A stretch of 15,058 nucleotides of DNA from an uncultured archaeon. GTDB taxonomy: Archaea > Asgardarchaeota > Lokiarchaeia > Sigyniarchaeales > Promethearchaeaceae. The notes under the pieces were generated by a model. That model saw only the letters and a program-made list of their open reading frames with translations. It did no database searches and was not told where the DNA came from. Below, one piece after another: positions 1,278-6,251 of the stretch (the stretch's first letter is position 1; each line of letters opens with the position of its first letter). The stretch lies in NCBI GenBank assembly GCA_964426185.1, contig CAYRPF010000050.1, positions 1 to 15,058 of the forward strand, in the 5' to 3' direction. A program made the position numbers and the translations under genes.

Positions 1278-4200
1278 TTATTCAGGTGAACTTTCAAAAG
1301 ATAATAAAGACTTTTCTTGGGGTAATAATGGGAGTCTTTGTAAAATGGAGATTAGGTATGATTGAATATTTTCATTGCTACTTCGCATTACATCTAAAGT
1401 GAAAAATGCCAATTTTACTCCGAAATAATCTTCGAGGATTTTTTTAACAAGTCCCAGACTGTTCATAACTTTATCTAATTGAGCTTGAATTTCCGTTAAC
1501 GGCTGTTTATTTTGAATTAAACAAAAAGCGGAAAGCAATATCATTAAACTGGCCGTATTGTAATCATTTCGTCGGGCCATGCGCTTAGAAAGCTTGATAT
1601 ATTTAATAGATGCCTCAGAGTATTTTTTCTGTTCTAATAAATTGAAAATATCCTGATAATAAGTTCGAATCATTTTTTTCCGTTTTTGCATAATAGTTGA
1701 AAAATCATTTGCTAATTCCGAAATGTCTTGCATCAAGACAATGGCTTGTTGATCGAGTAAATTATCTTCATCAGCAGTTCCATCACTTGAAATTGTGGCT
1801 AAATTACTAAATTCTTCAAATTTTTCACTATCATGCTGAAAATGTTGTGATAGCCTAACAAGAAAAGAGATTTCCCAATCGAATAATGGTAGCTTAGATT
1901 GAAATGCAGAAAAGATATCATTTAACATGCGTTCTGCGTTTGGATTATCCCAATACAGTAAAACAAAATCCAATAATTTTACCGGATCACTTGAAAGAAG
2001 TTCTTCATATTGGGTTTTATACTGAAACATAAATTTTTCAAATTCGCGATAAACTTCTTCTTGACTTTTTACCTTCAGAAGAGTTAGAAATCCCATGATT
2101 AAGGAGATAATGGCATACTCCGGATAATTGCGATTGACCATATTAAAAAACTGCTCTAAAAATGAAAGAGAAGCGTCTTCGTAATCTTGCCTGGCAAAAT
2201 GATCTTGACAATCACCCCAATATTTCAGATCAAACATTTTCCGCCTATTTTTCAATTGGACATTGGGAATGATATTTTCTATCAGTAAATTATAGTTTGA
2301 AGGAATAGGATTTTCTGATTTGACTAGAGTTTTTTGATGATCAGTTAACAGACTGGAAAAATCGATATCTTCTCCAATCAAGGTTTCTAAAATTAGTCGT
2401 TCTTCAGGGAATAGTGCAAATACATTGAAAATTTTTAAAGTTTCTCTAATTTTCTCCGAGTTATTATTTTCAATCATTTGTAAAAAATAATCTATTAATT
2501 GGAATGCGAAAGTTTTTTTGAAAATATCGAAATTAATGCGAGGATTTTTTTCAAATCTATGTAAATCGTGCTTTAATGCAGAAATATTGTGGACCAATAA
2601 ATATAGAAAAGTAATTACTGCAAAATTAATCCCAGCTAGTTCAAATTTCTTACTTGCGGCTAATTCTTCGGCAGTTTCAAGATATTTTTCAATGGCTTTA
2701 TAATACTGCTTCTCTCTGAAAAATTGAATCGCTTCATTATAATAACGCCGTTTTAATCCATTTCGCATCCTTAGTAAATTTTCAGAGGCAATTTGCTGGT
2801 CACGCGCTAGAATCTGCAGTTGAGAGAGCATTTCAGAAAACATTTGCGCCTTTTGGGATTGTTGCACTTTTTCTACTTTCGATCGACTTAATTCAGAAAC
2901 AATTTCGTCGATTTTTGCACAGTAAGAATGAGATAATTGATGGGTTTGAATTTTTTCCGCATATTTCCGCGCTTCGCCATATTCTTGTTTGGAAATATAA
3001 TATTTAACTAATTTGACATAAACTGAATCCAGATCGATTGATTCTTCATCTAAATAGCTTTTAGCTGCAAGTTCGATTTTGTTTAGTAGCCCTAATAGAA
3101 AATTAATACCTTTAGAATCAATTTTATAGGCTAATATTTCTGCATACGCAATTAATTTTTTTAAGTATAGAGTGGCTAATTGTGAAGATTCTTCGTATAA
3201 CAAATGATTACGATACAATTGAATAAATTGGACAATATTTCGTTCCGATTTTTCATTTCCTTCTCCAAATTTAATGCGAGAGAAATAATCTTGAATTTGA
3301 GTAAATTTTGATTGCAAGAAAGTCCGGCGCGGTTTTTCAGGTAAATTGAGAACATTTTCAAGAATACGAAATATTTGTTCATTATTTAGGTAAAAGTCTA
3401 AAAGAACCAACCATGCATTCGTGCTAAAAGAAACTTGGCCATATTTTGTGAACCATTTTGCCATTTGGATTATCTTTTTCTCAATTTTTGAGAAATCTTC
3501 TTCATTTAAGGTTCCTTCAGTCAGTTTTTGTAAATTATCAATTCTTTGCTGAAATCTCTCTCGTTCGAAAAGTATATATCCGTCTAAAATTTTTGTTTTA
3601 TTTGTTAGATCTTCGATTTCTCCCTTTCGGATCAATTCTTGTATTTTTTTTTCAGTTTCCATTCGTAAATTCGTTAATTCGATCTGTAACGGAGTACTAT
3701 TTATTTTTGGGATGATTCCTTCAGCTTTAAGAAAATCGCGTTTCTCAATAAACAATTTTGCCATTCTATATAAGAAATCATCAATGTTTTCAGATGGGAT
3801 ATCGTATGTCTCCCAAATATTGGTTAATTCGTCATAAGTTAACCGTGCAGTATTGACATCGTTATTTTCTAAATTTTTCAGCAAAATGCGTTTTAAGATT
3901 TTAACTACTTTTCTCCCTAATACTTGAAGGGATTCAAAAAGGCCAGCTTTTTGATAACGTTGAAAACAAAGATACAATTGAGATTTGGCATATTCATTTT
4001 GATCATTTTCACAAAGATCATCGGCAAGTTGTGCAATTTTTTCCGTGATTTCTTCTAAAACTGCAATCATTCTTGCATGCTCAAATTTATCGAGTAAAGA
4101 AAATGCATTTTGAAGTTCACCTTGAGCAATCCATGCGTTAATCGCTGATTTATAACATGTTTCCATTAAAGAGCTATCATCTAGTTCTAATTTAACCCAA

Positions 4201-5027
4201 TTTCCTGCCATTTCGTATTTTTCTGCAGCTTTTTCATATTCATTTTTGGAAAATAAATCATTTGCTTCTTCTAGAACTGTTTCTATGTATTTACGTTCAA
4301 ATTGTTTATAATAAGGGGGATTAATCTCGCTAATCAAATTAGCTGCTTTTAAAAATTCACCACTTTCAGCATATAAATTGGCTGCTTGTTCAGCCAAAAT
4401 TAAATAATCCAGAGAATCTGATTGTTTCAAATTATTAACTAATCGTTCACATAAGCGGGCTGCTTCAAAGTAATCAGATTGTTGAACTAATTTATTAATC
4501 TGGGAGTAAAAGAGTGATTGTTGAATCCAAGATGTGGCAATATTGATATTTGCCCAACCTGAGATCACAGTTTGACAAAGATTTACTAAATATTCTTTGA
4601 TTAAACCAGTATCTGAATGAGGCGGAATAAAAACACAAGCCGAAGAATGAAACCAGAGCCAATGTAAAATCCCAGATATATCTCCTTTTAAAAGAGGATC
4701 CATAGTTCTAATAACAATAATTATGGGAAAATCTGTGCGTATTTCTTGCAAAAGATTCAAAACTTCTTGCAATTTTTCGAAATTCCCTTTTTGGTTTGGA
4801 TCCAAATAATAGAGTATACCATCTGCCATTTGTAAAGACTCTTTCCCGTGTTCCTCAAAATTTTTGGGAATTATCAAAGAGAGGTCCACATCATCTTCTT
4901 CAATTTTTAGGAAGGTGGAGTACTGGACATCTTGTCCTTCATCTTTACTTGAAAATCCCATATCATTAAATCCTTGCATAGCTGAAAAGATGTCTCCTAA
5001 AACCGCAAAAGTAAGCATAAATTGCAC
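1278..5027 (-). CDS. Large alpha-solenoid (TPR/SNAP-like) protein with N-terminal degenerate Ras/Rab-like domain and three C-terminal ~175-190-aa repeats
   Basis: 1249-aa ORF, GTG start; N-terminal FAVLGD, ADGILYYLD...NFEKL, PIIIVI; helical repeats such as AANLYAESGEFLKAA and AAEKYEMAG; repeated R.....(Y)Y/W and LPL...E motifs. Confidence 0.7.
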   Translation of the reverse strand: MQFMLTFAVLGDIFSAMQGFNDMGFSSKDEGQDVQYSTFLKIEEDDVDLSLIIPKNFEEHGKESLQMADGILYYLDPNQKGNFEKLQEVLNLLQEIRTDFPIIIVIRTMDPLLKGDISGILHWLWFHSSACVFIPPHSDTGLIKEYLVNLCQTVISGWANINIATSWIQQSLFYSQINKLVQQSDYFEAARLCERLVNNLKQSDSLDYLILAEQAANLYAESGEFLKAANLISEINPPYYKQFERKYIETVLEEANDLFSKNEYEKAAEKYEMAGNWVKLELDDSSLMETCYKSAINAWIAQGELQNAFSLLDKFEHARMIAVLEEITEKIAQLADDLCENDQNEYAKSQLYLCFQRYQKAGLFESLQVLGRKVVKILKRILLKNLENNDVNTARLTYDELTNIWETYDIPSENIDDFLYRMAKLFIEKRDFLKAEGIIPKINSTPLQIELTNLRMETEKKIQELIRKGEIEDLTNKTKILDGYILFERERFQQRIDNLQKLTEGTLNEEDFSKIEKKIIQMAKWFTKYGQVSFSTNAWLVLLDFYLNNEQIFRILENVLNLPEKPRRTFLQSKFTQIQDYFSRIKFGEGNEKSERNIVQFIQLYRNHLLYEESSQLATLYLKKLIAYAEILAYKIDSKGINFLLGLLNKIELAAKSYLDEESIDLDSVYVKLVKYYISKQEYGEARKYAEKIQTHQLSHSYCAKIDEIVSELSRSKVEKVQQSQKAQMFSEMLSQLQILARDQQIASENLLRMRNGLKRRYYNEAIQFFREKQYYKAIEKYLETAEELAASKKFELAGINFAVITFLYLLVHNISALKHDLHRFEKNPRINFDIFKKTFAFQLIDYFLQMIENNNSEKIRETLKIFNVFALFPEERLILETLIGEDIDFSSLLTDHQKTLVKSENPIPSNYNLLIENIIPNVQLKNRRKMFDLKYWGDCQDHFARQDYEDASLSFLEQFFNMVNRNYPEYAIISLIMGFLTLLKVKSQEEVYREFEKFMFQYKTQYEELLSSDPVKLLDFVLLYWDNPNAERMLNDIFSAFQSKLPLFDWEISFLVRLSQHFQHDSEKFEEFSNLATISSDGTADEDNLLDQQAIVLMQDISELANDFSTIMQKRKKMIRTYYQDIFNLLEQKKYSEASIKYIKLSKRMARRNDYNTASLMILLSAFCLIQNKQPLTEIQAQLDKVMNSLGLVKKILEDYFGVKLAFFTLDVMRSSNENIQSYLISILQRLPLLPQEKSLLSFESSPE

Positions 5028-5579: not shown

Positions 5580-6251
5580 GTGGTTGGGGTCGTGTCATTC
5601 CGAAGAAACTCTGAAGATAAGATATTTTTGCTCCATCCTACTCGAAGGAAAATCTATAAAATAATATGTGAGAATCCGGGCACATATTTTTACCGATTAA
5701 TGCAACATGGGGATGAAGGGATAAGTAGTGCTACTTTACTATATCATCTTTCCAAATTAGAAGAAGATGAACTGATTCACTCCGCAAAAATTGATGGAAA
5801 AAGGATTTACTTTCCCAAAAATCTTCGAGATTTTGAAACTGAGCGCGCTTATATGTTGTTAAAAAATGACAATGCTCGTAAAATATTTCTATATATATTA
5901 AATCATGAAGGGTGCTTTCAAAATGAAATTGCGCGTGAACTTAACATCCATCATGATACTGTGCGCCATCATGTTGCGAAACTGGTTGATTCTGAAATGA
6001 TTGTAAAAGAAAAGGAAGGGCGCCAAATTCACTTCAAAATTGGAAGATTGGGTAAGGAAATATTGAAAGGTTCAATGGTTATCTTCTCGGAGGCGTACAT
6101 TCGTTTTATCATTTCAAAACTTGCTGATGATTGTCACTTTCCAGAAATTGTTGAACGAACAAATGAGCGGATTGTTATTCGAGTGGTCTGCCCCAATGAA
6201 GATGATATTGAATTGAACATTGATATCTCTGGATGGGCAATTGAAGAATAA
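5580..6251 (+). CDS. Tandem winged helix-turn-helix transcriptional regulator (ArsR-like, COG3398-type)
   Basis: Two HTH units: RRKIYKIICENPG...TLLYHLSKLEE and ARKIFLYILNHEG..QNEIARELNIHHDTVRHHVAKL; start may be GTG 5592 (AGGTGG upstream). Confidence 0.85.
   Translation: MVGVVSFRRNSEDKIFLLHPTRRKIYKIICENPGTYFYRLMQHGDEGISSATLLYHLSKLEEDELIHSAKIDGKRIYFPKNLRDFETERAYMLLKNDNARKIFLYILNHEGCFQNEIARELNIHHDTVRHHVAKLVDSEMIVKEKEGRQIHFKIGRLGKEILKGSMVIFSEAYIRFIISKLADDCHFPEIVERTNERIVIRVVCPNEDDIELNIDISGWAIEE

Follow-up and report, generated by a model that had tools for sequence, protein, structure and literature searches.

A Ras/Rab-like domain stripped of its nucleotide-binding motifs is fused to a TPR-like solenoid in an order of Lokiarchaeia

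We analysed a 15,058-nucleotide stretch of DNA from an uncultured Asgard archaeon (hereafter the window: contig CAYRPF010000050.1 of assembly GCA_964426185.1, assigned to the family Promethearchaeaceae in the order Sigyniarchaeales of the class Lokiarchaeia), whose largest open reading frame (ORF), at 1278-5027 on the minus strand, encodes a 1,249-residue protein from a GTG start. We report that the N-terminal 156 residues of this protein are predicted to have the fold of Ras/Rab-type small GTPases, that the consensus motifs by which such proteins bind nucleotide are missing from the family members examined, and that the domain is nevertheless retained under selection at the head of a long helical-repeat solenoid. 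An earlier note, made from the letters alone, had proposed a pseudo-GTPase fused to a solenoid for the region 4563-5027 (minus strand, residues 1-155 of this ORF). Our analysis agrees with that proposal, and we think it likely that the protein is an order-specific cytoplasmic scaffold in which a Ras/Rab-derived, nucleotide-independent pseudo-GTPase serves as docking head on a tetratricopeptide repeat (TPR)-like solenoid, probably at the membrane and together with the products of two conserved neighbouring genes, fam2 and a DUF2085 gene.

Results

The N-terminal domain has the fold of a small GTPase

Scans of the whole protein and of residues 1-200 against Pfam and NCBIfam returned nothing meaningful, and every database member of the family is annotated as hypothetical. 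The close homologues are proteins of about 1,240 residues from Candidatus (Ca.) Harpocratesius sp. (64% identity across the first 500 residues), from Promethearchaeota metagenome-assembled genomes and from Ca. Lokiarchaeum ossiferum, whose orthologue NEF87_003838 is 40% identical. The open frame comprises 1253 amino acids and the GTG start lies only 4 codons after the upstream stop, so no P-loop can be hidden upstream by a wrongly assigned start.

We modelled residues 1-156 with AlphaFold2 (AF2), with 14 orthologues in the input, and obtained a mean predicted local distance difference test score (pLDDT) of 85.7 and a predicted template modelling score (pTM) of 0.81. The modelled elements follow the order β1-α1-β2-β3-α2-β4-α3-β5-α4-β6-α5, which is exactly the topology of small GTPases, with strands at residues 2-11 (β1), 33-42 (β2), 45-54 (β3), 70-75 (β4), 102-106 (β5) and 131-133 (β6) and helices at residues 13-22 (α1), 57-67 (α2), 82-96 (α3), 117-127 (α4) and 141-156 (α5). 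The result is a six-stranded mixed sheet with an antiparallel β2-β3 hairpin and five helices, as in a G domain. The earlier note had read the same order of elements from the strings FAVLGD, KIEEDDVDLSL, ADGILYYLDPNQKGNFEKLQEVLNLL, FPIIIVI and IKEYLVNLCQTV, which we located in the translation at residues 7-12, 41-51, 68-93, 100-106 and 143-154, respectively, and the check it had suggested, a predicted structure searched with Foldseek, indeed recovers a Ras/Rab-like G-domain fold.

When searched with Foldseek against the PDB, the model gave at least 500 significant matches, led by KRAS, MRas, Rab11 and Ypt7 (E 4e-8, template modelling (TM) score by target 0.70-0.75). An exhaustive comparison with VIA-align placed Rab23 first (Z 16.5, root-mean-square deviation (rmsd) 2.6 Å over 153 residues), in a group with Sec4 and Ras-type proteins (Z 16-16.5, rmsd 2.6-2.9 Å, about 153 residues), with RasL12, Gem, the G-like domain of AGAP1 and Ypt32 as further top matches and with Arf-type and Rag-type proteins ranking lower (Z about 12.5). 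All of the best 50 structural matches are G domains of the TRAFAC class, mostly small GTPases, and the nearest model in the ESM Atlas belongs to a Ras-family cluster from Promethearchaeota (TM 0.65-0.68). Sequence identity to GTPases in the structural alignments is about 10-16%. The resemblance to small GTPases is thus far beyond chance.

Profile comparison ties the domain to true small GTPases

Common descent was assessed with hhalign, by which a profile of 32 family sequences was aligned with one built from seven true small GTPases, six of them encoded in this genome and the seventh being the library protein P0062. The two profiles align with a probability of 93.4% (E 2.5e-7), in a register that holds from β1 to β5 and is ungapped over the P-loop. 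The family keeps the 'hhhLGD' strand β1 and the 'GxhhhhD' strand β4 that are typical of Rab and Rho proteins, and the stretch MADGILYYLDPN aligns with the xxGxhhVhD strand β4 of Rab and Ras. The Pfam Ras gathering threshold is not reached and no Pfam match appears even at E up to 10; the homology is visible only in profile-profile comparison. The N-terminal profile retrieved from the PDB sequences only sub-threshold matches over the β4-α3-β5 region, to the septin Cdc10 (E 0.16) and to Gtr1 (E 1.5).

Within the genome itself, 44 loci match the Ras family PF00071 (of 4,979 ORFs, less than 1%), a number typical of a Lokiarchaeial assembly, and the gene described here is not among them. Conversely, the family hidden Markov model (HMM) found only the gene itself above threshold among all 4,979 ORFs, and Ras-family genes account for 10 of its 30 best sub-threshold matches. 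In an exhaustive library search the family profile reached a single bona fide P-loop protein, P0062 (191 residues, intact GxxxxGKT, E 5e-4). The motifs of P0062 are themselves uneven, with an intact P-loop (GEEEHGKT) and degenerate G3 (EIPG) and G4 (SKSD), and it may represent a partly degenerate lineage near the ancestor of the domain.

A different origin is conceivable for a domain that has no Pfam or NCBIfam match, only sub-threshold matches to PDB sequences and such low identity to GTPases: a Rossmann- or flavodoxin-like domain, for instance a receiver-like domain or the remnant of a STAND-type NTPase of the MalT/AfsR kind, could have converged on the Ras fold without ever having been a GTPase. 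We regard this as very improbable, since the top structural matches are all TRAFAC small GTPases with the antiparallel β2-β3 hairpin, CheY, flavodoxin and STAND proteins are absent from the best 50, the hhalign alignment is in register, Ras-family genes are enriched among the sub-threshold HMM matches and the β1 and β4 signatures are kept. Receiver-domain identity was rejected on fold, and a STAND NTPase-TPR protein (MalT/AfsR/NB-ARC-TPR) on the grounds that there is no Walker A motif, no NACHT or NB-ARC match in Pfam and no STAND or AAA protein among the best 50. On the strength of the profile alignment and the HMM matches, Asgard Rab/Ras-like small GTPases are the probable evolutionary source of the domain.

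The nucleotide motifs are lost throughout the family

The earlier note had pointed to the absence of GxxxxGK[ST], DxxG and NKxD, and to GDIFSAMQ, IIPK and IRTMD in their stead. These strings lie at residues 11-18, 52-55 and 106-110, and the alignments place GDIFSAMQ, IIPK and RTMD at the very positions of the three motifs. At G1, the leading 'hhhLGD' survives, but second Gly, Lys and Ser/Thr have all been lost. At G3, hhalign puts I52 at the position of the Asp, K55 at that of the Gly and N56 at that of the catalytic Gln. At G4, RTMD aligns with NKxD, its Asp is not kept in the family, and the consensus after β5 is instead FxDxxG. As for G5, alignment with true GTPases by MAFFT sets ETSAK against a variable PPHSDT or ADLGSP loop at about residues 135-140, a register less certain than the others because the hhalign alignment ends before G5. 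In the AF2 model helix α1 starts at residue 13, straight after G11-D12, so that no phosphate-binding loop is formed.

We then surveyed 75 family sequences, namely 53 database representatives and 22 genome loci that include f4, the most divergent of the four families (f1 to f4) in which the protein occurs. Within the first 60 residues none carries GxxxxGK[ST] or so much as GK[ST], in residues 91-150 none carries [NT]KxD, and DxxG was not found in 73 of the 75. The orthologue with intact G motifs that the earlier note had asked to be sought was not encountered among these sequences, f4 members (which were aligned too) likewise being without GK[ST].

The domain is kept under purifying selection across one order

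To define the phyletic range we searched 400 Asgard genomes for the domain. It is present in 137 of the 153 other genomes of the window's Lokiarchaeial order (f1, 12/13; f2, 1/1; f3, 121/135; f4, 3/4) in one copy per genome, and absent from all 247 Asgard genomes in the rest of the phylum; in sister families within the class, no N-terminal homologue could be detected. A search of five sister-family genomes for the solenoid likewise found no homologue, a single match (E 3.5e-4, 44 positions) being too short and weak. Since the motif-less domain occurs order-wide and once per genome, the motifs were lost before the order radiated, and the domain itself has persisted from then on.

Conservation along the domain runs opposite to the pattern that a working GTPase shows. 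The least conserved segments are the P-loop/α1 region, the G4 loop and the G5 loop, with mean majority fractions of 0.34-0.38 (residues 12-22, 0.35, next to an invariant G11; G4 loop, 0.38; G5 loop, 0.34), and the core strands β1, β4, β5 and β6 score 0.58-0.66, whereas in true GTPases of the same genome the G motifs themselves are the invariant columns. Conservation peaks in MADGILYYLDPN, in which D69 and P77 are invariant and G70 and Y73 are at least 90% conserved; this stretch runs from the last part of what was the switch II helix through strand β4 to the turn into α3.

Comparison with the Harpocratesius orthologue gave the same ratio of nonsynonymous to synonymous substitution rates (dN/dS), about 0.15, in G-like domain and solenoid; both values are approximate because dS (about 1.8-2.0) is near saturation. 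Mean column identity is 43% in the domain and 39% in the solenoid. The domain is therefore under purifying selection and is retained, which points to a non-catalytic function and not to a pseudogene. These values also bear on the notion that the solenoid alone matters and that the N-terminal domain is a functionless relic in decay. Loss of the catalytic motifs in all members would fit such decay, yet the domain is as conserved as the solenoid or more so, and it is full-length in 137 genomes of four families, with truncated variants only at contig ends; we give this explanation the least credence of all those considered.

A G-domain fold from which the consensus motifs are lost and which is retained under selection is what characterizes a nucleotide-free pseudo-GTPase, and this is the combination found here. 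The loss of the Lys, Ser/Thr, Asp and NKxD, the variable pocket loops and the missing P-loop in the model suggest that the domain no longer binds nucleotide.

The rest of the protein is modelled as a divergent TPR-like solenoid

The remaining 1,093 residues (157-1249) were modelled by AF2 as an all-α structure of 54 helices with a pLDDT of 83.1. It consists of five helical-repeat modules, two helices of 58 and 54 residues and three low-confidence linkers, those between the C-terminal modules lying at residues 887-906 and 1066-1086 (Table 1). In the model the first module opens with a helix bearing the invariant W167 (TAW motif), which packs on the G-like domain. Tandem antiparallel helical hairpins wound into a superhelix are what defines a TPR-like α-solenoid, and AF2, Foldseek and VIA-align all return them here, in line with the fusion to a solenoid that the earlier note had proposed.

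Foldseek matched the whole solenoid to long TPR/HAT scaffolds, namely IFT139/TTC21B, Ski3, Ctr9 and the clathrin heavy chain (E 3e-6 to 1e-3, TM about 0.1), and VIA-align matched module 1 to the TPRs of Sec17/α-SNAP, LGN and KLC (Z 10-12). Sec17/α-SNAP was considered as the specific counterpart of module 1 and dismissed, its Z of about 12 coming with an rmsd of 7-9 Å, in the range of generic helical repeats. A specific eukaryotic counterpart of the solenoid was rejected likewise, the matches being those of generic TPRs. The solenoid profile found no match among PDB sequences, and Pfam TPR models recognise just 3 of 34 members, which marks the repeats as highly divergent. Residues 157-1249 are, as modelled, a divergent TPR-like solenoid for which we claim no specific counterpart.

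Table 1. Positions of the domains, motif remnants and genes discussed in the text
Feature	Positions	Strand	Basis
Ras/Rab-like pseudo-G domain, aa 1-156	4560-5027	-	AF2, Foldseek PDB, VIA-align, Atlas, hhalign
P-loop (G1) remnant GDIFSAMQ, aa 11-18	4974-4997	-	hhalign register, AF2, family alignment
G3/Walker B (DxxG) remnant IIPK, aa 52-55	4863-4874	-	hhalign register
Most conserved stretch MADGILYYLDPN, aa 67-78 (end of α2, β4 and next loop)	4794-4829	-	family alignment, conservation
G4 (NKxD) remnant RTMD, aa 107-110	4698-4709	-	hhalign register, family alignment
Solenoid module 1, aa 157-441, TPR-like	3705-4559	-	AF2
58-residue helix aa 445-502, solenoid module 2 aa 509-714, 54-residue helix aa 718-771	2715-3695	-	AF2
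Three C-terminal helical modules, aa 775-885, 912-1063, 1089-1242	1281-2705	-	AF2
Gelsolin-like N-terminal domain and coiled coil, 277 aa	429-1262	-	weak sequence match
ACT-domain-like protein, 147 aa	5135-5578	+	Atlas structural match
ArsR/MarR-type double winged helix-turn-helix gene	5580-6251	+	immediately after ACT-like gene
fam2 gene, 236 aa	6359-7069	+	synteny
DUF2085 polytopic membrane protein, 414 aa	7075-8319	+	Pfam PF09858 E 5.6e-12, synteny

The solenoid gene has a conserved divergent neighbourhood

On its 5' side the gene is accompanied by fam2, the DUF2085 gene and an ArsR/MarR-type helix-turn-helix (HTH) gene, a neighbourhood kept in 10 of 11 loci across f1 and f3, between which the 1,249-residue protein is only about 25% identical. 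By hand comparison of the listed coordinates, fam2 lies on the opposite strand of the same contig, 150-300 bp upstream of the solenoid gene, in about 90 genomes; in some genomes only a more distal tandem fam2 copy is listed, 0.9-1.5 kb off, and the few exceptions are at contig ends. The gene for the polytopic DUF2085 membrane protein always follows fam2 directly. The fam2 product carries the invariant motif FPxYLKNDQTxRQCKxxHxNY and gave no lead to its identity in Pfam, the PDB or the Atlas. Its range is the class Lokiarchaeia (147 of 153 genomes of the order, 6 of 7 of three sister families and 0 of 240 elsewhere in the phylum).

In f3, fam2 is often tandem-duplicated, and in many f3 genomes the second copy has 1-2 in-frame stops, a mixture of TAA, TAG and TGA (for example G193:C4:298411-299085 and G208:C51:66131-66793). 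One fam2 paralogue may be pseudogenising, or the match may be over-extended across the gap between tandem genes. In f1, which includes the window's genus, and only there, a 147-residue ACT-like gene and the HTH gene are inserted within the divergent pair, the stop of the former ending 1 nt before the start of the latter. The ACT-like protein resembles Asgard hypothetical proteins and ACT clusters in the Atlas (TM 0.64-0.78), and the two genes probably encode a ligand-sensing regulator.

The downstream side is more variable. In the window, a gelsolin-like gene begins 15 nt past the stop of the solenoid gene, a linkage that recurs only at locus L011 of the close relative Harpocratesius sp. The sequence evidence for gelsolin is weak: it consists of a PDB match to Heimdall 2DGel (E 1.3) and a shared YIW.GS motif (YIWVGSEAP in the window), and Pfam detects no gelsolin domain in the gene. 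The Harpocratesius sp. orthologue (L011:11779-13494) has about 40 tandem EEARKA repeats added, which resemble an ER/K single α-helix. In Ca. L. ossiferum a gene for an internally duplicated, BAR/FAM92-like coiled-coil protein of 451 residues takes the downstream place (L012:11887-13242, plus strand); it matches FAM92/CIBAR PF06730 below threshold (E 5e-4, 20 bits against a cut-off of 23.6), and is a possible archaeal BAR-like protein by that similarity. In f3, a convergent TFIIB gene lies downstream. A gelsolin operon as a general feature of the family was therefore rejected, the linkage being genus-level at most. In the sister family f5, which has no solenoid protein, fam2 is convergent with a gene of 420-452 residues for gelsolin repeats and a coiled coil (L037:4133-5491, plus strand; L038:6679-7941, minus strand), with a gelsolin-repeat match just under the cut-off (PF00626, E 1.3e-3). 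This second, independent fam2-gelsolin neighbourhood is a weak hint at an actin-related context.

Discussion

A candidate docking head on a solenoid platform

We propose that residues 1-156 descend from a Rab/Ras-type small GTPase that would have lost nucleotide binding before the order diversified, which would make the domain a pseudo-GTPase of the class-i type. Having kept the G-domain core, the β2-β3 interswitch hairpin and the strongly conserved α2-β4-α3 face as a putative binding face, it would no longer switch and would most likely act as a constitutive protein-docking head. The invariant W125/W167 region would fix it to the solenoid of about 1,090 residues, whose five modules and two long helices, each of over 50 residues, would supply multivalent binding surfaces. 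The fam2 and DUF2085 proteins are likely partners, gene order being the sole basis of this proposal, and since one of them is a multi-pass membrane protein the scaffold would sit at the membrane.

Several observations weigh against this proposal. The f4 members are found without the fam2/DUF2085 neighbourhood, fam2 is present in sister families without a detectable solenoid protein, and no function can be recognised for fam2 or for the solenoid. The pTM of the solenoid model is 0.37, so the relative placement of its modules is not predicted. Within the domain, most members have D, N or E directly after the invariant G11, and a conserved NPN/DPN at the C-terminal end of β4 faces the side of the former nucleotide pocket. 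These last two features, along with the purifying selection over the whole domain, would fit a domain that is still a ligand-binding switch. Like some atypical GTPases and class ii/iii pseudo-GTPases, it would use non-canonical residues to hold GTP, ATP or a different phospho-ligand, and would regulate the interactions of the solenoid. Such a switch seems unlikely to us, albeit less so than convergence or decay: the G1 Lys and Ser/Thr and NKxD are gone in 75/75 sequences and DxxG in 73/75, the would-be pocket loops are the most variable parts of the domain, and α1, starting where it does in the model, would leave no anion hole. We thus favour the nucleotide-independent docking head.

Relation to known pseudo-GTPases and repeat proteins

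Pseudo-GTPases of eukaryotes are assembly and interaction modules, among them the pG1 and pG2 domains of p190RhoGAP, which lack G motifs and bind no nucleotide, and CENP-M, a kinetochore pseudo-GTPase with a structural role in assembly (PMC10211241). Like CENP-M, the domain described here has a small-GTPase fold without nucleotide motifs and would be an assembly element paired with a helical-repeat protein; unlike it, the domain is archaeal, is fused to its solenoid and has lost the motifs independently, CENP-M being a separate polypeptide of the eukaryotic kinetochore. There, CENP-M has a HEAT/solenoid protein, CENP-I, as its binding partner. The best 50 structural matches in VIA-align do not include CENP-M. 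With pG1 and pG2 the domain shares the state of a motif-less G-domain fold inside a large multidomain protein, but those are internal, stand beside a RhoGAP domain with no solenoid and are confined to metazoa, and no specific sequence relationship to them was found. The likeness to both is a grouping by property, not a clade, and is best described as analogy through independent loss.

The closest structural neighbours, with the same fold, are the Asgard Rab/Ras-like small GTPases, such as Thor-Rab (PMC10933270) and the products of the 44 PF00071 loci in this genome. They have intact G1-G5 motifs, are multi-copy, and are either 170-230 residues long or fused to longin, roadblock or other domains, whereas the family described here is motif-less, single-copy and attached to about 1,090 residues of solenoid. 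Ski3, IFT139/TTC21B, Ctr9 and Sec17/α-SNAP share with the solenoid an all-α TPR-like superhelix of similar length, but none has an N-terminal G-like domain, there is no sequence homology and the structural resemblance is of a generic kind (TM about 0.1; Z no higher than 12, at rmsd values over 7 Å). Prokaryotic Roco proteins and LRRK2 also place a Ras-like G domain within a large repeat protein (Z 12.8 for the Roc domains of Methanosarcina barkeri Roco2 and of LRRK2); in these, however, Roc works as a GTPase and a COR dimerisation domain comes after it, and here there is no COR, there are no G motifs, and the repeats are TPR-like rather than leucine-rich.

Our literature search found no paper describing an archaeal pseudo-GTPase, the papers that it did find describing pseudo-GTPases only in eukaryotes. 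In the library searched, Asgard archaea and pseudoGTPase never occur together in a paper, and the papers that name both archaea and pseudoGTPase do not link them. The published Asgard GTPase studies that we found do not mention the family, no description of a pseudo-G domain joined to a TPR-like solenoid of about 1,090 residues came to light, and NEF87_003838 appeared neither in the search nor in the accessible part of the supplements to the L. ossiferum paper.

Implications for Asgard biology

A bolder and doubtful extension is that this would be the first recognised archaeal pseudo-GTPase, an order-wide, single-copy 'frozen switch' that mimics Rab/Ras and permanently docks GTPase-binding modules (roadblock, longin or effector-like), or the fam2/DUF2085 pair, on a TPR platform of 1,100 residues. 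It might then be a prokaryotic forerunner of the eukaryotic assemblies, membrane-associated or cytoskeletal, that are built on a solenoid and nucleated by a GTPase-like subunit, such as CENP-M/CENP-I, the dynein light intermediate chain, Arl2/TBCD, and IFT22/27 with the IFT TPR proteins. The genes for gelsolin-plus-coiled-coil or BAR-like proteins that recur nearby might then connect it with actin and with the shaping of membranes in the protrusions of Lokiarchaeia.

The family is ancient, order-wide and linked to two further conserved proteins of unknown function, fam2 and DUF2085. As it is present in the cultured Ca. L. ossiferum, localisation and interaction experiments are feasible, and these could give a function to all three conserved unknowns together, the solenoid protein included. 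If the proposal made here is true, the large GTPase repertoire of Asgard archaea would already have yielded non-catalytic structural derivatives, and big assemblies of GTPase-like domains with solenoids would not be solely a eukaryotic invention.

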